The notes below the pieces were generated by a model. It worked only from the letters and a program-made list of their open reading frames with translations, did no database searches and was not told the origin of the DNA. Positions 1 to 8,196 of a stretch of DNA of 64,000 bases are shown piece by piece. Origin of the DNA: a virus; the IMG/VR virus record IMGVR_UViG_3300044511_000090, positions 1 through 64,000 of that record. The stretch is one strand, 5' to 3'. Both the position numbers and the translations under genes were made by a program. The stretch's first letter is position 1. The number at the start of each line of letters is the position of its first letter.

Positions 1-70
1 TACTGGCGATTCGTATGACAACAAACAAATTCATGGCCTTCAGGACTCGCGGAGAAAACCCGTTCAGATA

Positions 71-108
71 TTGACCAATTGCAGCCGCAACGATAGCCTG
101 CAACCATG
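71..108 (+). promoter_or_regulatory. sigma70-like promoter, probably leaderless, for terL
   Basis: TTGACC(71-76)-N17-TAGCCT(94-99)-N6-ATG(106); no SD upstream. Confidence 0.55.
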
Positions 109-3100
109 TTAAGCTCCTCAGACATTGCAGAACTTGAAGCCTATCTGCCGCACGCTACCGACGAAGAGAAGCGGCAAATCAATCAGCACCTTCTCTCGAT
201 CCGCAAAGTCGAAAAGAACTTCCCTTGGGCCGCTTACAGATACGACCCCATCGGCTACGCATACAACGTCCTCGGCCTCTCGATGCTCACCGAAGATCAA
301 AAGACGGCATTGAGAGCCGCCGTAACTCCGCCGTACATGGTCAAGATCGATTCAGGAAACTCGTGCGGCAAAACGCTGATTTGCGCCGTGCTCGTGAACT
401 GGCAATATGACTCCTACAATCCAGGATGCGTTTACACAACGGCCCCGTCGTCGTCGCACGTCAAGCGCGTGCTCTGGGCTCAAATACGAGACCTCAGAGC
501 CAATGCAAAGATCAATCTGCCGCAAGACTTCATTGGCCCGGCAGCGCCGGAAATGCGAAGCGACCCCAACCATTTCGCCATTGGCCTGACCGCAGATAAA
601 GGAGAAGCGATAGCTAACAGCGAAATCATCTACACACCTTCTGGTAAGAAAAAATTCGGAGACATTGCCATAGGAGACATGGTTTTCGCCTGCGATGGCT
701 CTCAAACAAAAGTGACGCATGTTTTTAAGCACTATGGAAGAAAAATTTACAAAGTAACCCTAGTAGATGGTAGGTGTGTTCGTACTGACGGGGACCACCT
801 GTGGAGCGTTATCAACCACAACTACGGCAAATACAAAACTTTCAGGCTGATGTCAACCAAAGAGATGCTGGAAACTGGCGTAACATATGGGGCAACAAAT
901 AGGCCGAAGTATTATTTGCCAACATGCGGGGCGCTGTCGTACAAGCACAAAGAAACAACAATTCCAGCATACACTATGGGGGTATGGCTTGGAGATGGGA
1001 GCTCCAGCGACAGTTCAATAACTTCTGGAGACGCTCAAATGATAGAGCTTCTCAAAAATGACAATCCGAATTGTGGCATGACGGTCAGGACTCCTAAAAA
1101 CAGGAACGCCAGCTTGATACGAATTCTTGGAATGCGTTCAAAGCTGAAATCCATTGGTATGCTTACTTCAAAATGCCGAACTAAAAGAGTCCCAACAGAA
1201 TACATGGACAACTCCACAGATGTCAGGCTAGGAGTGATCCAGGGGCTGATGGACACAGATGGGTACATAAGCCCAAATGGGACAACAAGTTTTACGTCAA
1301 CAAGCCCAGGCTTGATTGAAGACATGATGTGGCTTGTCAGATCACTTGGCGGCAGAGCATCATTAAACAACCTAGTTGACATTAAAAACGAACGATCACA
1401 CCCTTGCTACACAATGAACTTTATTCTTCCTGGATTCAGTTGCTTTAGGCTAGACAGGAAAAAACGCAGGGAAGTAAACAGAGACCGCCGAAGGGCCGCT
1501 ATTAAATCGATAGAAGAATGCGGGGTTGAAGATACTACGTGCATAAGAATCGAGCACGAAAGCAGTCTTTTTGTTATCGGAGATGGGATCGTCACCCACA
1601 ACTCCCTCAAGGGCTCTCACTTGGCGCACATGGGGTTCATTTTTGACGAAGACGAAGGATTGGGGCAGATGTATTGGGACTCGGTGCGAACCATGTTCAA
1701 GCCGACTCCAGGAATGTTCTGGCTCACGGTAGGCAACCCGTCAACAGTAAGCAGCCCTGCCTATCTCGAATCCATTCGCACGACGGACGACGGCAAGCCG
1801 ATGTGGCGCAACCTTCGCATGAGCGTGCTCGATCACCCAAACATCATTGCCGCCAGCAAGGGGCTTCCGCCTCCAATCCCCAAAGCTGTGACGGCAGAAC
1901 AGGTCGATGTCTGGGTCAAACGCCTATGCACTCCGCTTGAAGACGACGAAGAACATCGTGTCACAGACTTCCAGTGGAGAGGCAAATGGCATCGGCCAAG
2001 CGGCGAAGGCGAAACAGTCATCCTTGGTCGTCGCCCATCAACAGGAGCTTCCGGCGTCTGGTCGGACGCCCTCTGGGATGCCTGCTGCCGCCTCGAATTG
2101 CCCTTCCCAATCGACGAAATGCCCGAACTTGGCTGTGACGTGGCCAGAGTGCTTGGCGGCGATAATTGCGACATACATGCCCAATGGGGCGGCAACTCCA
2201 TCGCCCATGACTCAGCAAATGGCCGATCCATACCTGCTACAATCGCTCGGCTCAAGGAAATGGCCGAAGAGGTCTGCGAGTTTGCAAATGCCAAACGCAT
2301 CGAAATCATCAAGAACAGCAACTTAGAGCCTGAAGAAATCGCACGCGCCATGATGCACAAGCCGTGGATTCCCAAACAAATCCCCATCAAGATCGACGAT
2401 TGCGGCATCGGCAACGTCATCAGCGACTTCAAGGACGGCTGGAACTTCATCCCGGTCAATCCAGGCTGGGCCGCAAAGATGGACCTTCGCTATCCGAACG
2501 TCAGAAGCGAACTATGGTTCGAGACTATGGAAAAGGCCGTCCTCGGCGGCTTGAGTCTGCTCTACTTGCCGGAAGACGAACGGCAGATGCTCCGCATCCA
2601 GGCTTTCGCGCCAACATGGAAGCAGAACGAACGCCGAATGCGAGTTGTCGAGTCCAAAGAAGACACGAAGAAAAGACTTGGCCGATCACCGGACTGTTTT
2701 GTTGCTGGGACAAAAATCAAAACAATCAACGGAAACAAGCCAATCGAAGAAATTATGCTTGGCGAACTCGTATACACACGAAACGGATGGCATCCGGTTA
2801 TTGGGCATGGGCAAACTGAAGAAACCTCTGAAACCGTAATTGCGTCATTTTCAAACGGAGAAACGCTTGAAGCATCTCCAAACCACCCTGTTTTTGTTGA
2901 CAATAAAGGGTGGGTTCGTATCGACGCATTGGCACTGTCTGATAACATAGTCGAATGCCACAACCACAAGTTACTGTCGTGTTCAACGGGATCACTTTCA
3001 TCAGGTTCCCTGAAAGCAAAAGCGAATCTTCTCGAAAGTATTTTTACCCGTTTGCTAACAACCGAAGACTCAGTGGAATTGGCGCTCTTCATCAGGCTGT

Positions 3101-3876
3101 TTGGCGGCATCACCACGGCGAAATACCACCAAAACACGATATTCACCACGTTGATGGAAACCCTCTCAACAACGATATTTCCAACCTTGAGTGCCTCACA
3201 AAGAAAGATCATGCTGAAAGACACAGAGGCACATGCTCAGAAAGGAAGAAAGCGAACCTCGACAGGATACGCCATCTTACCAAAGAATGGCACTCAAGCG
3301 ATGAGGGAAGAAAATGGCATTCTGAGCACGCTAGGAAATCTTATGAGTCCAGAGTTCCTGTCGTCAAAACATGCGACCAGTGCAGCAAAGAATACAAAAA
3401 CTTTTCTCGCAGGGAAACAGACAGGTTTTGCTCATCTAAATGCGCTCAAAAATGGTATTACAGACATAAAACAATGTTTGTTGAATCTTCTTGCCCTGAG
3501 TGCGGAATCAAAACTAAAAAGCAGCCTGGGCGCGGCAAGAAGTGCTGCTCTCAATCATGTGGTGCGCGTAGAAGGTGGAGGCTCAAAAAAGAAGGTGTTC
3601 AATCTGACAGTTGATTCTGAGCATGAGTATTTTGCAAACGGAATACTCGTACACAATTGCATGGACGCCTTCAACTTGGCCCATTTTCACGCCAATTTCG
3701 GCTCTCCAAAGCTCATATCTATCGAGACCGGCGTATCTCGCGCAAGCAAAACGATGGGCGCTCGCATCGGCATCGGTGGCATCGGCCAGCGCGGGTCACA
3801 ACCAGCTGCTGACCGAGGCGAAGAACCGCCGCGAAGGGAAGAAAAGCGATCACTTTGGGGAAAGAACAGGCGGTGA
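106..3876 (+). CDS. terL: Terminase large subunit interrupted by two inteins
   Basis: Walker A SGNSCGKT, Walker B FIFDE, GNP coupling motif, nuclease LGCDVAR, and C-terminal SPD/CMDA once the inteins are removed. Confidence 0.92.
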   Translation: MLSSSDIAELEAYLPHATDEEKRQINQHLLSIRKVEKNFPWAAYRYDPIGYAYNVLGLSMLTEDQKTALRAAVTPPYMVKIDSGNSCGKTLICAVLVNWQYDSYNPGCVYTTAPSSSHVKRVLWAQIRDLRANAKINLPQDFIGPAAPEMRSDPNHFAIGLTADKGEAIANSEIIYTPSGKKKFGDIAIGDMVFACDGSQTKVTHVFKHYGRKIYKVTLVDGRCVRTDGDHLWSVINHNYGKYKTFRLMSTKEMLETGVTYGATNRPKYYLPTCGALSYKHKETTIPAYTMGVWLGDGSSSDSSITSGDAQMIELLKNDNPNCGMTVRTPKNRNASLIRILGMRSKLKSIGMLTSKCRTKRVPTEYMDNSTDVRLGVIQGLMDTDGYISPNGTTSFTSTSPGLIEDMMWLVRSLGGRASLNNLVDIKNERSHPCYTMNFILPGFSCFRLDRKKRREVNRDRRRAAIKSIEECGVEDTTCIRIEHESSLFVIGDGIVTHNSLKGSHLAHMGFIFDEDEGLGQMYWDSVRTMFKPTPGMFWLTVGNPSTVSSPAYLESIRTTDDGKPMWRNLRMSVLDHPNIIAASKGLPPPIPKAVTAEQVDVWVKRLCTPLEDDEEHRVTDFQWRGKWHRPSGEGETVILGRRPSTGASGVWSDALWDACCRLELPFPIDEMPELGCDVARVLGGDNCDIHAQWGGNSIAHDSANGRSIPATIARLKEMAEEVCEFANAKRIEIIKNSNLEPEEIARAMMHKPWIPKQIPIKIDDCGIGNVISDFKDGWNFIPVNPGWAAKMDLRYPNVRSELWFETMEKAVLGGLSLLYLPEDERQMLRIQAFAPTWKQNERRMRVVESKEDTKKRLGRSPDCFVAGTKIKTINGNKPIEEIMLGELVYTRNGWHPVIGHGQTEETSETVIASFSNGETLEASPNHPVFVDNKGWVRIDALALSDNIVECHNHKLLSCSTGSLSSGSLKAKANLLESIFTRLLTTEDSVELALFIRLFGGITTAKYHQNTIFTTLMETLSTTIFPTLSASQRKIMLKDTEAHAQKGRKRTSTGYAILPKNGTQAMREENGILSTLGNLMSPEFLSSKHATSAAKNTKTFLAGKQTGFAHLNALKNGITDIKQCLLNLLALSAESKLKSSLGAARSAALNHVVRVEGGGSKKKVFNLTVDSEHEYFANGILVHNCMDAFNLAHFHANFGSPKLISIETGVSRASKTMGARIGIGGIGQRGSQPAADRGEEPPRREEKRSLWGKNRR
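607..1602 (+). mobile_element. Class 3-type intein with LAGLIDADG endonuclease (332 aa)
   Basis: Starts with Ala (AIANSEIIYTPSG); TDGDHLW block B, TTCI block F, IVTHN/S end (W-C-T triplet); GVWLGDGS and GLMDTDG dodecapeptide motifs. Confidence 0.88.
2695..3657 (+). mobile_element. Intein (321 aa) with an out-of-frame HNH gene in its endonuclease slot
   Basis: CFVAGTKI start, ASPNHPV block B, VFNLTV...YFANGILVHN/C end. Confidence 0.9.
2955..3614 (+). CDS. HNH homing endonuclease with C-terminal Cys-rich repeats, nested in an alternate frame
   Basis: LHQAVW..HHGEIP...IHHVDGNPLNNDISNLECLT...H; CxxC/FCSxxC motifs; TGnTAACAT-N6-ATG upstream. Confidence 0.85.
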   Translation: MPQPQVTVVFNGITFIRFPESKSESSRKYFYPFANNRRLSGIGALHQAVWRHHHGEIPPKHDIHHVDGNPLNNDISNLECLTKKDHAERHRGTCSERKKANLDRIRHLTKEWHSSDEGRKWHSEHARKSYESRVPVVKTCDQCSKEYKNFSRRETDRFCSSKCAQKWYYRHKTMFVESSCPECGIKTKKQPGRGKKCCSQSCGARRRWRLKKEGVQSDS

Positions 3877-4071
3877 TACTCGCTTGTTCTTTGCAATTCG
3901 GCCACATCCAGAACAGAAAAAACACTTCGGGCAAACCTTGTCAAAGTTTGTGAATGAATATGGCTTTTTGTAAGTGCCATGCCCGCAATTCTTACAAACA
4001 ATCGGGCACGTAGGAGCAGCACCGTTCGGCATTCCACATCCGCTCCGTGGACAATAATCAGCACGCCGCGC

Positions 4072-4752
4072 CTATTTTTGACTTCTTGCAGCGACCTTGT
4101 CAGCCAGCATCCCGGCCAGCCGTTCTTTGATCTTTTGATAACGCTCTTTCATGGCATCATCGAAAGCCGCTAATTCATGCTTGGAGTTGAACAACGAGTG
4201 GCTAAATGAAACCTCGACCACTCCAAGACGACCATTGGAATCCCTGTAGCAAATATCTTTGTCAGTAATCGCAACCAGAATTAGTTTTTCTAACGAAAAT
4301 CCAAACGATCCTGGACTGCCAAATGCCCTAAAAAACTCTTGGCCGATTCCAGGAATGACAAACTGATTTTTAACCGGCTTCGGTAGCTCCTTCTCCAATC
4401 TCCAATAGTCAGAAGAAGAAAGCGACACTTCCGAAGTGTACTCGTCAAGAATGATCGTTGACAACTTGCCGTCAGATAACACTGCTTTGTACGACACGAA
4501 CTCGTCATCCTCCCCATCGCGCGTGAATGAATAGCCATTCGCGTACATAACGGTGTTGCTGTCGTAGAAATCGATTTCGCTGGGGTGATTCTCGATCTTC
4601 CCATCAGGCCCAAACAAGCCTTCCTGCCTGATTTCGTAACTGCTGCAATCGCAGTCCAGGTCTTTCGTCTGGTACTCGTGGTCGTCAGACTTCACGAAGT
4701 TGGCCTTCTTCGGCAATTTGACATTGCACTTGATGTGGTCAAACATTCCCAT
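4072..4752 (-). CDS. Hypothetical phage protein (MGMFD...YQTKDLDC type)
   Basis: GGAGG SD before MGMFD; N-terminus resembles a common phage hypothetical family. Confidence 0.65.
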   Translation of the reverse strand: MGMFDHIKCNVKLPKKANFVKSDDHEYQTKDLDCDCSSYEIRQEGLFGPDGKIENHPSEIDFYDSNTVMYANGYSFTRDGEDDEFVSYKAVLSDGKLSTIILDEYTSEVSLSSSDYWRLEKELPKPVKNQFVIPGIGQEFFRAFGSPGSFGFSLEKLILVAITDKDICYRDSNGRLGVVEVSFSHSLFNSKHELAAFDDAMKERYQKIKERLAGMLADKVAARSQK

Positions 4753-4771
4753 TCTTTCGGCCTCCAATCTG

Positions 4772-5068
4772 CTAAACAGCAGAATCAATAGATAAGGCTT
4801 CCAGTTTCGATTCAACTTCTTTCAGTTCGGCGCGAAGCTGCAACAATGTTTCATCTCGTATCTTGCTGTGAAAATCGTCCGACATGCAAATCGGAACGCG
4901 CTGAGCGCTGGCGTTCCCAGGCTTAGATGCGCCTCGATCAAATGCCAGGAACAATTGTTCGCAGTTTTTAAGCCACGAGATTCGCTCCCTCAAGATCGCC
5001 AAATCACCAAGTAACTGTTTGCCAACATTGGCAATCTTTTCAATCCTATGAATTTCTTCTGGCGTCAC
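4772..5068 (-). CDS. Hypothetical protein
   Basis: GGAGG SD, GTG start, coiled-coil-like sequence. Confidence 0.55.
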   Translation of the reverse strand: MTPEEIHRIEKIANVGKQLLGDLAILRERISWLKNCEQLFLAFDRGASKPGNASAQRVPICMSDDFHSKIRDETLLQLRAELKEVESKLEALSIDSAV

Positions 5069-5139
5069 ATATGCCTCCGGTAAATGGTCAAAAACAACAC
5101 ATGATTACCGTAATTGTAGTGCATATGCCAGACACGTCA

Positions 5140-5750
5140 ACCGCACAGACTCTTGCGGCGACAGATTCTTCCAGGCTGAAATGGTTGATAGAAAAGGCTG
5201 GCCACAAGTGACGCCGGTGGCCAGCCCAAAGGTGAACAAACCCCGACAGCCGATTCACCGATCAGGGTTCGATATTCAAGATAGCAAGACACAAGAACAT
5301 TGGCAATACGAAAACAAGACACATTGATGCCGGTATGGGTTGGGTTCGCGCACCGACCCCGTTGAAAAGGCCGGTCGTCGTGTGCCGTATAAGGGCGGGA
5401 CGCTTCCGTTGGAGATGATTGATTTTCGTGGTACTCCTAATTCCCCCGTCACCACGTCTGAAGGCTTTCGCGGACCAAGGCCGTGTTTCGGATACCTTAC
5501 CTTGCATCAGATTTACGCCAGTGGATGAAACCATGCCGCTGGCAAAAGACGCACTTCCTAACTGCGGCGTCTGAGTCGCATTCCCTTGTGTACCCGCAGG
5601 TCGGCAAAGGGGGCCGGTCTCTCAACATGGAGTTTTTGAAAGTTTTTCTGTTGCTGTGTCAGGCAAGATATGCTAGGCTAACCTAGTTCTCTGCTGCTGC
5701 TACAGCGAGACACCGGCCATCAGTAGTTTGTGCTGCTGATGGCCACTTTC
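5140..5750. ncRNA. Candidate structured non-coding RNA or regulatory region
   Basis: About 650-nt gap without a convincing ORF, with many complementary segments (5196-5226, 5325/5509, 5517-5543, 5547-5572, 5715-5744). Confidence 0.35.
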
Positions 5751-5792
5751 TTTGGCGTCGTTTCATACTCTACCACATCGCCAATCGGCGTG

Positions 5793-6536
5793 TCAACTGG
5801 CAATCGTTCCGGTTTCTGGAAACAGCCTGGAATCCCACATGCGCTTGTTCTTTTCCACTGTATTCCAGAGGAAATTGACAATTTGCTTGGCCTCTCCAGC
5901 CCTCTCAATCGCTTTGGCCTCGACTTGCCGAACCCGCTCTTTGCTAACTCCCCAATCGTCAGCTATCTGCTGAAGGGTCTCGCCTTTCTCGAATCGTCGC
6001 ACGAGGACTTCGACATGCTTCGGCTTGAGCAAGAGAGACAGGATGCACTTGGTCTCAGGCATCATGGTCTCGCGTGGTTCTTCGTACTCTGGCCGATCCA
6101 AAACGTCGAACTGCAAATTCTCTCGACAGTCTTTTGTTTCTGAAAACTTATCCGACAACGAGATAACGCCATACTTTCTTGAGAACGAATTGAACACTTG
6201 GCCAATTCTTGATGTCAAAACAAGTGCCGCTCTTTGGACCCGATGCCTGATCCTGAACGTGGCATGTGTTGACCTTTTGGTGTTGTAAGATGGGTCAAAC
6301 GACAGGCACGACTCGCAAAGGCCAATGACGGCGGCTTGCGCCAAGTCTTCTGCAAATTGGCCTACTAATTTGTAAGGCTTGATGTTGTTTGTTACCATCG
6401 CCAAGAAGCGAGCATACCTGTTAGCGATTTTGAACGCTAGGCCGAGATTCTCGACCACCCATTCCCGTTCTTCTGGCGTGAGTTGCCTTGACTTCGGCTG
6501 TTCGGCAGAGATTATGCCCTGAGTCGATTGCTGCAT
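5793..6536 (-). CDS. Sigma70-family RNA polymerase sigma factor-like protein
   Basis: ENLGLAFKIA, EDLAQAAVIGL...FDP region 2; TLQQIADDWGVSKERVRQVE region 4 HTH. Confidence 0.85.
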   Translation of the reverse strand: MQQSTQGIISAEQPKSRQLTPEEREWVVENLGLAFKIANRYARFLAMVTNNIKPYKLVGQFAEDLAQAAVIGLCESCLSFDPSYNTKRSTHATFRIRHRVQRAALVLTSRIGQVFNSFSRKYGVISLSDKFSETKDCRENLQFDVLDRPEYEEPRETMMPETKCILSLLLKPKHVEVLVRRFEKGETLQQIADDWGVSKERVRQVEAKAIERAGEAKQIVNFLWNTVEKNKRMWDSRLFPETGTIAS

Positions 6537-6689
6537 TGTCGTGCTCCGTAATCGGCCAGGGCGGACTGTGTGAGAGCAGTGCCGCCCATTTTTCATTCAC
6601 CATTGCTTGTTGTATCAGATGAAGCCGGGTCTGTCTCAAGCAGGCACTTCTGGCAAATCATCTGATTCCACATTTAGAGAGTGTACGTG

Positions 6690-7010
6690 TTATGGCCTCA
6701 TGTGATCCGTGACGAGATAATCAAGTTCACCGTAAACGAATTCAACGTCATACCATCCTGGCTGGAAACCGTCTTTTTTATCGCCGTTTTTTTGGATCAG
6801 TGCGATGGACTTGATTTCAGTTGCGTACATCCACGGATAGATTTGATGCTTCAGAGGCATGATTCTTGGCCCATCGTAGCCGATTGTAGGCAAACGATGC
6901 GATTTCTTACCACCAAGCATTCCATCCGAAGGAACATCGCCAAGAATCAGCCTGATGGCAGAACATATGCCTCTTGGTGTTCTACACAGGAAAGGGATTG
7001 TTTGTGTCAT
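6690..7010 (-). CDS. Hypothetical protein
   Basis: ORF in operon orientation, starting just after the orphan stop at 7018. Confidence 0.5.
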   Translation of the reverse strand: MTQTIPFLCRTPRGICSAIRLILGDVPSDGMLGGKKSHRLPTIGYDGPRIMPLKHQIYPWMYATEIKSIALIQKNGDKKDGFQPGWYDVEFVYGELDYLVTDHMRP

Positions 7011-7017
7011 TGATCAC

Positions 7018-7077
7018 TTAATCGAACAAGAACAGCTTCACGTTGGCGGTCGAGCCAGAGTAGTTGCCGATGGCGAT
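7018..7077 (-). pseudogene. Orphaned original 3' end of gene 7735-8196
   Basis: Encodes IAIGNYSGSTANVKLFLFD*, identical to the C-terminus of 7735-8196 but with different codons. Confidence 0.9.
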
Positions 7078-7727
7078 GACAGAGACTTTTCGACTGACCA
7101 CCCTCTTTTTATTCTCTTTGAAATCGTCAGCCTAGATATTCCGGTAATTTCAGCCCATTCCGATAAGCACATCGTTCTGCCAAAGCACGATATAATCCTA
7201 TTGGACCTCTTATTCCTTTGCTGCTCAATTTGAGTAGCCCATCTTACATTTCCAGGCTTGTAGTCTCCGTCATTATCAGGGAACCTGTCAAGCGAATGGG
7301 AGGGAGACGGCCTGTATCCAACATCCAGCAAGAAATTGCTGAAAGAGTTTGCCCACCTTTCGCAAACTCTTATGCCCCTGCCACCATAGTCTTTGAAGTC
7401 ATGCGACGTTTTTCTTGTGCATCTCTTTTTGATTGCGGCCCACGCCGCGTATTCTGGAGATTGCTTTCTTGTCTTAGATTTACTGCATCCGTGGACAAAT
7501 CTTCGACTCTTGGTGGAATCTCTAGTAGCACATCCGCAGCTTGAATTCCCTGCTAAAAGAGTTGAAGAACTTACAATATCGACATTACCACAATCGCACC
7601 GGCACTTCCAAGAGCACAATGTTTTAGACCCGAACTTTCTTTTGCCTTCGTATGAAATAACAACCCGTCTGCCAATTCGATCACCTGTAAGGTTTTTGAA
7701 CTTTTTACTTTTTGGGAAATCAAACAT
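7038..7727 (-). CDS. Free-standing His-Me finger (HNH-type) homing endonuclease
   Basis: WKCRCDCG, YGGRGIRVCERW, SLDRFPDNDGDYKPGNVRWAT..EQQRN; GAGG SD. Confidence 0.85.
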   Translation of the reverse strand: MFDFPKSKKFKNLTGDRIGRRVVISYEGKRKFGSKTLCSWKCRCDCGNVDIVSSSTLLAGNSSCGCATRDSTKSRRFVHGCSKSKTRKQSPEYAAWAAIKKRCTRKTSHDFKDYGGRGIRVCERWANSFSNFLLDVGYRPSPSHSLDRFPDNDGDYKPGNVRWATQIEQQRNKRSNRIISCFGRTMCLSEWAEITGISRLTISKRIKRGWSVEKSLSSPSATTLARPPT

Positions 7728-7734
7728 GGTAGCC

Positions 7735-8196
7735 TCAATCAAAGAGGAACAATTTGACATTCGCAGTAGAACCAGAATAATTTCCAATAGCGATACTGTC
7801 TATCTCCTCCATTGAAGGTTCTGACGATCCAGTTATCAACGCTGTGCTTGCCACAGGACGAATCGAGCCGTAGCCAGAGAGCTTGAACGGCGCATACTTC
7901 CTGACCTTGACCGTCTCGCTTCCGGTCTGGCCGATGAGTTGGAGATAGACCGTCTGATCGGCCCAAAACCACAAGTAGTCGAAGTCTGTCGGGAAGTTGG
8001 AGTCTTCATCCCATGCCGTGCGAACAGTGGCCGTTGGAATCTGGCCGATGTACGTGTATATGAGCCCGGTGACAGTAGGCGACTCAGAAAATGCGTAAAA
8101 CTCGCTGGCCAAAGTGTCGGATTCGCCGTGGTTGGCGGCGAATGTCGTGCCGTTGACCTCGATTGAGAATCGGTCGATGATGTTCAGGTTTGCCAT
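7735..8196 (-). CDS. Hypothetical (possibly virion) protein; target of the HNH insertion
   Basis: GAGG SD; GC3-rich body switching to AT3-rich in the last ~40 codons. Confidence 0.75.
   Translation of the reverse strand: MANLNIIDRFSIEVNGTTFAANHGESDTLASEFYAFSESPTVTGLIYTYIGQIPTATVRTAWDEDSNFPTDFDYLWFWADQTVYLQLIGQTGSETVKVRKYAPFKLSGYGSIRPVASTALITGSSEPSMEEIDSIAIGNYSGSTANVKLFLFD

Follow-up and report, generated by a model that had tools for sequence, protein, structure and literature searches.

The viral DNA analyzed here (the window) comprises the first 64,000 nucleotides of IMGVR_UViG_3300044511_000090, a 74-kb contig in IMG/VR, and is present in eight lake-water metagenome runs. Near its start lies one long open reading frame (ORF) for the large subunit of the terminase (terL), a precursor that contains two inteins. 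The second intein is the subject of this analysis: between its splicing blocks B and F the intein frame is open, and a complete gene for an HNH_3 endonuclease is found over the same bases in another frame of the same strand (Table 1). The first-pass annotation of this DNA had proposed an intein with an HNH ORF in a second reading frame at this locus, and both features were found where it had placed them.

Table 1. Positions in the window of the second terL intein, the nested nuclease gene and associated features (aa, amino acids; nt, nucleotides; pLDDT, predicted local distance difference test score)
Feature	Position	Strand	Remarks
Terminase large subunit (terL) precursor ORF, 1256 aa, two inteins	106..3876	+	PHROG terminase large subunit families
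Intein 2, 321 aa, class-1 type	2695..3657	+	Pfam Intein_splicing, Hint_2, PT-HINT
N-terminal splicing region of intein 2, blocks A and B	2695..2958	+	pLDDT 86-97
Intein-frame linker, about 193-195 aa	2959..3537	+	Stop-free, sequence not conserved
C-terminal splicing region of intein 2, blocks F and G, VFNLTVDSEHEYFANGILVHN	3538..3657	+	pLDDT 88-94
Nested HNH_3 endonuclease gene, 219 aa	2955..3614	+	-1 frame of intein (offset 2; window frame 3)
HNH-frame TAA (2943-2945), three codons, ATG (2955-2957)	2943..2957	+	Without Shine-Dalgarno sequence
TGATAACAT, weak extended -10-like element 6 nt before the ATG	2940..2948	+	Putative; family enrichment weak
Intein 1 of the same terL, about 332 aa, LAGLIDADG motifs	607..1602	+	Boundaries set by eye

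The second intein and its nested gene

The TerL exteins alone comprise about 603 residues, with the Walker A motif GNSCGKT at 355-375. Intein 2 extends from CFVAGT to ANGILVHN, is followed by the Cys+1 of the C-extein (3658-3660), and interrupts the C-terminal nuclease motif of TerL (GRSPD/C...HN/CMDAFN, with slashes at the junctions). Its residues are those of a class-1 intein, namely a Cys1 nucleophile, a block B motif, and a terminal His-Asn followed by Cys+1. Block B reads SPNH (2875-2886), with a Ser replacing the Thr that at least 90% of relatives have at this position (61) of TxxH. Cys1, H64 and the terminal Asn (N321) are invariant among 35 relatives. Blocks F and G read VDSEHEYFANGILVHN/C at 3610-3660 and are recognized by Pfam Intein_splicing (E 7e-12). 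The linker between the two splicing regions has no Pfam or PHROG match, and gives only a few weak tblastn echoes in relatives. In the predicted structure of the intein-frame product, the splicing domain is confidently modeled (pLDDT 86-97) and the linker (residues 90-285) mostly scores below 55, except for a helical stretch at about residues 150-180 with a pLDDT near 80.

The HNH frame is delimited by a TAA at 2943-2945 and a TGA at 3612-3614, the latter falling inside intein block F; over the length of the nested ORF there are no stops in the intein frame and 16 in the third frame. The sole Pfam match of the nested ORF at E values up to 0.1 is HNH_3 (PF13392; E 1.6e-16, 60.1 bits, cut-off 24.8), and residues 25-212 match the HNH endonuclease family phrog_15471 nearly end to end (E 1e-26). 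The protein includes an N-terminal beta-hairpin region (FNGITF), the HNH core IHHVDGNPLNNDISNLE (3141-3191), a KEWHSSDEGRKWH helix, and two CxxC...CxxxC zinc ribbons. Among 38 HNH relatives, the catalytic residues H64, H65, N73 and H86 of the beta-beta-alpha-metal core and three zinc-ribbon cysteines are invariant and N77 is nearly so, and the copy in the window retains all of the invariant residues (H64, H65, N73, H86, C140, C143 and C163).

An AlphaFold model with the 38 relatives as input has a mean pLDDT of 91.5. By both profile and fold, the nearest solved structure is I-HmuI (profile E 0.0018; VIA-align Z 6.5, root-mean-square deviation 3.4 A over 76 residues), followed by I-PpoI (Z 4.9) and then by many HNH domains, although these Z values are modest; a Foldseek search of the PDB with the same model returned nothing at E values up to 0.001. 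No second copy (paralogue) of the nested gene was found within the window. The family as a whole is large, with 1,410 clusters at E values up to 1e-30 in a library of 1.8 billion proteins, whether nested or otherwise. The HNH_3 match and the two zinc ribbons bear out the earlier description of a clear HNH nuclease with Cys-rich repeats.

Conservation of two open frames

Taken by itself, the open intein frame of this copy is only mildly unlikely (P = 0.12 with synonymous-codon shuffles and 0.05 with codon-order shuffles). That it exceeds chance or error is decided not by this copy alone but by comparison with relatives. Searches with the intein and the HNH yielded 87 IMG/VR loci, and four cultured phages have intact copies; together these sources gave 52 distinct HNH genes, 22-45% identical to the copy in the window. 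Nine of ten prophage or metagenome-assembled genome loci were added, for a total of 61 distinct loci. The prophage and metagenome-assembled genome loci come from Mycobacterium, Bacteroides, Flavobacteriaceae, Saprospiraceae, Hymenobacter, Gemmatimonadales and Nitrospiraceae (phyla Actinomycetota, Bacteroidota, Gemmatimonadota and Nitrospirota), and the cultured carriers, which include phiCDHM19, Highwayman and TJE1, infect Acinetobacter, Clostridioides difficile, Tetrasphaera and Rhodobacteraceae. The nested HNH_3 lineage is present in hosts of at least six bacterial phyla. Two further searches were negative: a megablast of positions 1-8000 of the window against cultured phages gave no match, and a scan of a genome collection with HNH peptide patterns gave no confirmed match.

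All 61 loci share one layout: an HNH in the -1 frame with respect to the two halves of the splicing domain, stops that tightly bound the HNH frame, and a host ORF that is open throughout. Shuffles predict one to five host-frame stops per locus, against an observed number of zero; for 35 representatives that share less than 60% identity, the joint P is about 1e-70. The corresponding frame of four free-standing relatives, taken as a control, contains 4-12 stops, and that of an in-frame relative contains 19. A separate observation concerns phiCD119 (L091, NC_007917), whose 2006 record has terL annotated in pieces (778-2595) with stops in both the intein and the HNH frames; both frames are intact in its sister, phiCDHM19, and the stops in phiCD119 may reflect either sequencing error or real decay.

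The selection acting on each frame was estimated as omega, the ratio of nonsynonymous to synonymous substitution rates (dN/dS), in 24 pairs of relatives whose nucleotide identity is 70-99%; the values therefore describe relatives of this phage, for whose own terL no close relative was found. Omega is 0.05-0.43 in the HNH frame, and 0.43-2.4 (mostly 0.7-1.4) in the intein frame over the same columns, and nucleotide differences pile up at codon position 3 of the HNH frame. Purifying selection acts on the HNH frame only. It follows from this contrast that the HNH frame is kept for its protein, while the intein frame is kept only free of stops.

These results agree with most of what the first-pass annotation had said of the two frames. 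The stretch between blocks B and F is indeed stop-free and motif-less in the intein frame, with no family match and an omega of about 1, and the description of a dual-coding element is upheld by an HNH frame that is confidently folded and under purifying selection beneath an open intein frame. The proposed comparison of dN/dS per frame among homologues gave low values in the HNH frame and values of about 1 in the intein frame. Homologues with a stopped HNH frame and a conserved intein frame were also considered, and the pattern found was the opposite, with both frames open in 61 of 61 loci and selection on the HNH. Finally, standard annotation does miss the nuclease, as had been suspected: each of the four intact cultured phages has a single terL coding sequence (CDS) and no HNH feature.

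The assembly of the region was examined in contigs from four of the eight runs, which may include the source sample and so provide an assembly check rather than independent biology. These contigs are identical to the window across 2695-3657. Compensating frameshift errors were looked for over 2400-4000, and no indels were present; the only two differing letters are in one short contig, past the end of the gene.

Initiation of the nested gene

The arrangement TGnTAACAT-N6-ATG that had been noted ahead of the nested gene is present at 2940-2957, as TGATAACAT-N6-ATG. In 50 of 52 loci the start codon is an ATG; it comes a median of four codons after the upstream stop and shortly before the conserved FNG motif. 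The retention of an ATG so close to the upstream stop points to independent initiation, and the nuclease would be translated separately from this codon. Of the 52 loci, 11 have a TANNNT sequence 4-8 nt ahead of the start, compared with 8% of control positions, which is no more than a hint of leaderless-type starts in some members of the family. Whether homing is thereby uncoupled from late terminase expression, as the first-pass annotation supposed, is a matter of conjecture.

Insertion sites and alternative forms

The unit of intein and HNH_3 gene occupies at least five positions in TerL. Three are adjacent registers of the DH..DA.RY nuclease motif, and the others are in Walker B (L007, L065) and in nuclease motif I (L016). 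Several allelic states are found among the close terL genes around one relative. Two loci (L114, L115) are intein-less, reading VDAWNH/CLDALRY, and two others (L105, L106; 2702-3142) have an intein at VDAWNH/C..., in this case a 147-residue mini-intein with a 33-residue remnant of the out-of-frame HNH. The 67-residue extein segments of these two pairs are each about 79% identical to the P0105 query, a figure that does not compare them to one another directly. Other close terL genes (L107, L108) have the full nested form. Taken together, the intein-less and mini-intein loci look like stages of a homing cycle. Other mini-inteins are present in L073, L075, L076, L079 and L098.

In all four phages examined (BP10, vB_EauM-23, PAE1 and CL2; L132-L135), free-standing relatives of the HNH are immediate neighbours of the terminase genes, either upstream of terS or between terL and the portal gene. 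The free-standing HNH of BP10 is 51% identical to the nested HNH of Highwayman, and the TerL proteins of these two phages are 27% identical. In a quick tree, free-standing genes appear at three or more positions among the nested ones, although the deep forks are unsupported.

Two exceptional forms were also encountered. In one IMG/VR terL (L130:1583-3751), which came from a locus search, an HNH of the same HNH_3 family is fully in frame, giving a canonical HNH intein; this is the only in-frame case among about 65 loci, and it groups with the nested L002 and L003 in the quick tree (Shimodaira-Hasegawa-like approximate likelihood ratio test, SH-aLRT, 93). The other, P0105, is a protein of 357 residues obtained in a profile search, in which the TerL nuclease domain, the N-terminal half of the intein and the HNH are in one frame that ends at the HNH stop. 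It may be explained by an indel error, or else represent a half-shifted form or a split-intein intermediate. Longer in-frame or fused proteins were also sought by a word-indexed search, which found none and is weak evidence. All of these observations on sites, alleles and forms fit a history in which mini-inteins were invaded by terminase-linked free-standing homing genes, with an occasional later shift into frame.

Interpretation and alternatives

It is probable that intein 2 is a composite selfish element in terL, consisting of a class-1 mini-intein (Hint) and an HNH_3 homing gene of the free-standing type nested between blocks B and F. Ribosomes on terL would read through the nuclease gene in the intein frame, generating about 195 residues of unconserved filler, and the splicing domain would excise this filler together with itself, restoring TerL. 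The nuclease would be made separately by internal initiation at the ATG at 2955, probably at a low level, and would probably cut the intein-less terL of co-infecting relatives, whose repair would copy in both intein and nuclease (homing). Both frames are open in all relatives, and the start codon of the nuclease is conserved and the splicing residues have been retained; in addition, the close relatives of related terL genes include alleles with no intein, with a mini-intein and with the full element. Protein splicing is inferred because its motifs are intact and TerL is essential; the cleavage target of the nuclease and homing are inferred as well.

Several observations weigh against this composite element. 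At the nested ATG in the window there is no Shine-Dalgarno sequence, although AGGAG is present at many genes of this phage; across the family, Shine-Dalgarno-like motifs are not enriched at the starts (21%, compared with 17% of control positions). The promoter that the first-pass annotation had assigned to the nuclease was not recovered, as a sigma-70 scan identified nothing upstream of 2955. TGnTAACAT matches the -10 hexamer at four of six positions, and the TG-extended form of TANNNT, found in 2 of 52 loci, is not clearly enriched. There is no RNA run among the runs listed for this DNA, and an IMG/VR pattern search with the extein of this phage found no close terL relative. Splicing around an arbitrary filler of 195 residues is assumed on the strength of the essential role of TerL, and the steady linkage of the HNH family to terminase genes would also fit a role in packaging.

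The last point leads to the alternative that the nested HNH is, perhaps additionally, a working partner of the terminase in DNA packaging, kept inside terL for the sake of linkage. It may be likened to the HNH proteins encoded beside the terminase genes of HK97-like phages, and was also raised by the authors of the brucellaphage study (PMC4422536). The free-standing relatives adjoin terS or terL in every one of the four phages. Two phages have one copy each: Acinetobacter phage BP10 has an HNH upstream of terS and no intein, and in Highwayman, which lacks an upstream HNH, the 51%-identical copy is within the terL intein. However, proximity to terL is equally expected of a free-standing homing gene that targets terL, the HNH_3 family with its I-HmuI-like fold is typical of homing enzymes, and the unit sits at several sites in TerL. 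Close terL relatives either lack the intein or have mini-inteins without the HNH (L098, L073, L075, L076, L079, L105, L106), and the nuclease is dispensable because such relatives exist. A packaging role is consequently considered unlikely. It is more doubtful still that the family architecture is real but that this particular copy is an inactive relic, with a nuclease that is no longer made or no longer active. The missing Shine-Dalgarno sequence, the negative promoter scan and the lack of close relatives by which to gauge selection in this lineage are in line with such a decay, but the ORF is full-length, all invariant residues are present and the model is confident, and the relic is judged very improbable.

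Two further alternatives concern the frames themselves. Programmed -1 frameshifting, in place of initiation at the nested ATG, could produce a fusion, TerL(N)-intein(N)-HNH, that terminates where the HNH gene does; P0105 has just this composition, all read in one frame. The offset is -1 at every locus, and of the 52 loci, 9 have an X_XXY_YYZ heptamer in the correct register close to the junction, compared with 6% of control windows. The constant offset is also explained by common descent or by a lower stop load in that frame, however, and the ATG that is retained close to the upstream stop in nearly all loci would be needless for a frameshift. The window contains no slippery heptamer from the HNH-frame stop (2943) to the conserved N-terminus, and most relatives (43 of 52) have none either; frameshifting cannot be the general route, and its use here is judged quite improbable. 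The run of six A residues at 3584-3589 (C TCA AAA AAG in the intein frame) has the slippery form A_AAA_AAG and lies where the frames overlap near the 3' end of the HNH gene, but a shift at this run would not yield the HNH because it is downstream of the nuclease core. The other alternative is an assembly or sequencing error, by which an HNH that is truly in frame would be hidden by two compensating frameshifts near 2950 and 3600; in its favor, the run of six A residues lies at about 3584-3589, the chance of an open frame in this copy (0.05-0.12) is not tiny, and L130 provides a precedent for an in-frame HNH of this family. Yet contigs from the four runs are identical, with no inserted or missing letters, the HNH frame has a stop three codons ahead of its ATG and a second in block F, and 61 distinct relatives from several studies, four finished isolate genomes among them, each have the -1 offset, their own ATG and their own stop. 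Given these indel-free contigs and the constant layout across relatives, compensating errors were rejected, and an artefact is close to inconceivable.

If the composite element is accepted, a broader suggestion is that the terminase-adjacent and the terL-intein-nested HNH_3 nucleases form one mobile pool that switches repeatedly between states. This is speculative, and on balance is doubted more than it is believed. If true, a free-standing nuclease beside terL would cut the conserved TerL nuclease motif, and a mini-intein at that motif would protect the gene; the nuclease gene would then move into the intein, surviving only in the frame where few stops need to be removed, so that the frame bias would be explained by constraint and not by descent. 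L130 and P0105, the latter fused at the N-junction only, would represent later steps towards a canonical intein, and the whole would be the intein counterpart of the 'collaborative homing' proposed for mobile introns.

Intein 1

The same terL has a first intein of a different type. It has a Pfam LAGLIDADG_3 match, with weak Hom_end and Hom_end_hint matches below the gathering score. It apparently starts with Ala (AIANSEIIYTPSG) and has a Trp after block B (DHLW), a Cys in block F (DTTC) and a Thr in block G (VTHN/S). This pattern of residues looks like that of class-3 inteins.

Comparison with known systems

The architecture described here has already been published, and the HNH_3 elements are a further, independent lineage that is notable mainly for its breadth. 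They have the features by which the nested class is recognized, namely an ORF between blocks B and F that is out of frame, a host frame that is open beyond chance, and selection on the nuclease frame. Among phages, the brucellaphages Tb and Pr (Perisivirus) likewise have a terL intein with a complete HNH gene in another frame of the same strand; the GenBank record of Tb (NC_019446, 2012) annotates terL as 'intein present' and includes the nested HNH CDS (Virol J 2015, PMC4422536). In these phages, however, the nuclease belongs to Pfam PF01844, with its catalytic motif near the C-terminus, and only a 40-residue HNH core aligns with the HNH_3 family. The nested gene has a frame offset of +1 rather than -1, and the intein is in the ATPase half of TerL rather than in the C-terminal nuclease motif. 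The element in the window has neither the PF01844-type nuclease nor the +1 frame, and so is not a member of the brucellaphage lineage.

The 'OOF ENDO VII' elements of actinophages (Gosselin et al. 2025 preprint) are similar in that a class-1 terL intein has a same-strand nuclease ORF between its splicing blocks, in 'frame 3' and thus with the same -1 offset, and a filler without recognizable structure; the authors propose that the intein was invaded by a free-standing homing gene. Their nuclease is an Endonuclease_7 (PF02945) that is not detectably related to the HNH_3 family (hhalign probability 0.6%), the TerL site is different and the start codon is GTG. In the sequence of Gordonia phage Keitabear, the offset is -1 and the ORF is a PF02945 protein that does not align with the HNH_3 family profile. 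The ORF in the window does not encode a PF02945 nuclease, which sets it outside that lineage. OOF ENDO VII is found in a few closely related actinophages, whereas the hosts of the HNH_3 lineage span six phyla or more.

Outside phages, a cyanobacterial dnaX intein has an out-of-frame LAGLIDADG nuclease (Phillips, DeSimone and Gogarten, bioRxiv 10.64898/2026.09.14.751524), which is credited to Gorbalenya 1998 as that work is cited. There too the nuclease overlaps the intein out of frame, with a low omega for the nuclease and a raised omega for the intein, and a secondary invasion of a mini-intein has been proposed (bioRxiv 10.64898/2026.09.14.751524). The dnaX case involves a LAGLIDADG enzyme and a cellular gene and is confined to one phylum, in contrast to an HNH_3 enzyme in phage terL. 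Fractured genes (Dassa et al. 2009, PMC2677866) also have a separate homing gene at the usual position of the intein endonuclease, but in these the host gene is split into two ORFs whose products are joined by trans splicing; in the HNH_3 lineage the host frame is open in all 61 loci, and splicing would occur in cis. P0105 may be an intermediate between the nested and fractured-gene layouts.

The ShiLan 'hidden HNH' insertion in actinophage methylase genes (Arsenault et al. 2025, PMC11855218) is likewise an out-of-frame HNH in an open host ORF, again with no obvious ribosome-binding site, but because there is no splicing domain the filler stays in the host protein. The nearest structure to the nested HNH, I-HmuI (PDB 1U3E, phage SPO1), is an intron-encoded HNH homing endonuclease that is about 20% identical to it, with a different C-terminal DNA-binding part that lacks zinc ribbons.

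Set beside these systems, the HNH_3 lineage offers several things. Gene callers and most annotators report one long terL CDS and overlook a conserved, selected nuclease, as in the Clostridioides difficile and Acinetobacter phages among the four intact isolates. The two overlapping frames are maintained for different reasons, one for the encoded protein and the other only for being stop-free, and so offer a natural setting in which to measure what each constraint costs. At the point of endonuclease insertion, about 195 residues of arbitrary, drifting sequence appear to be tolerated by the Hint domain. A single nuclease family is found in free-standing, nested out-of-frame, half-fused and in-frame forms, which bears on the 'splicing first' idea that free-standing homing genes colonize mini-inteins. 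Nested nucleases of this kind have been described before, in the systems above, and the present lineage adds breadth and quantification rather than a new principle.

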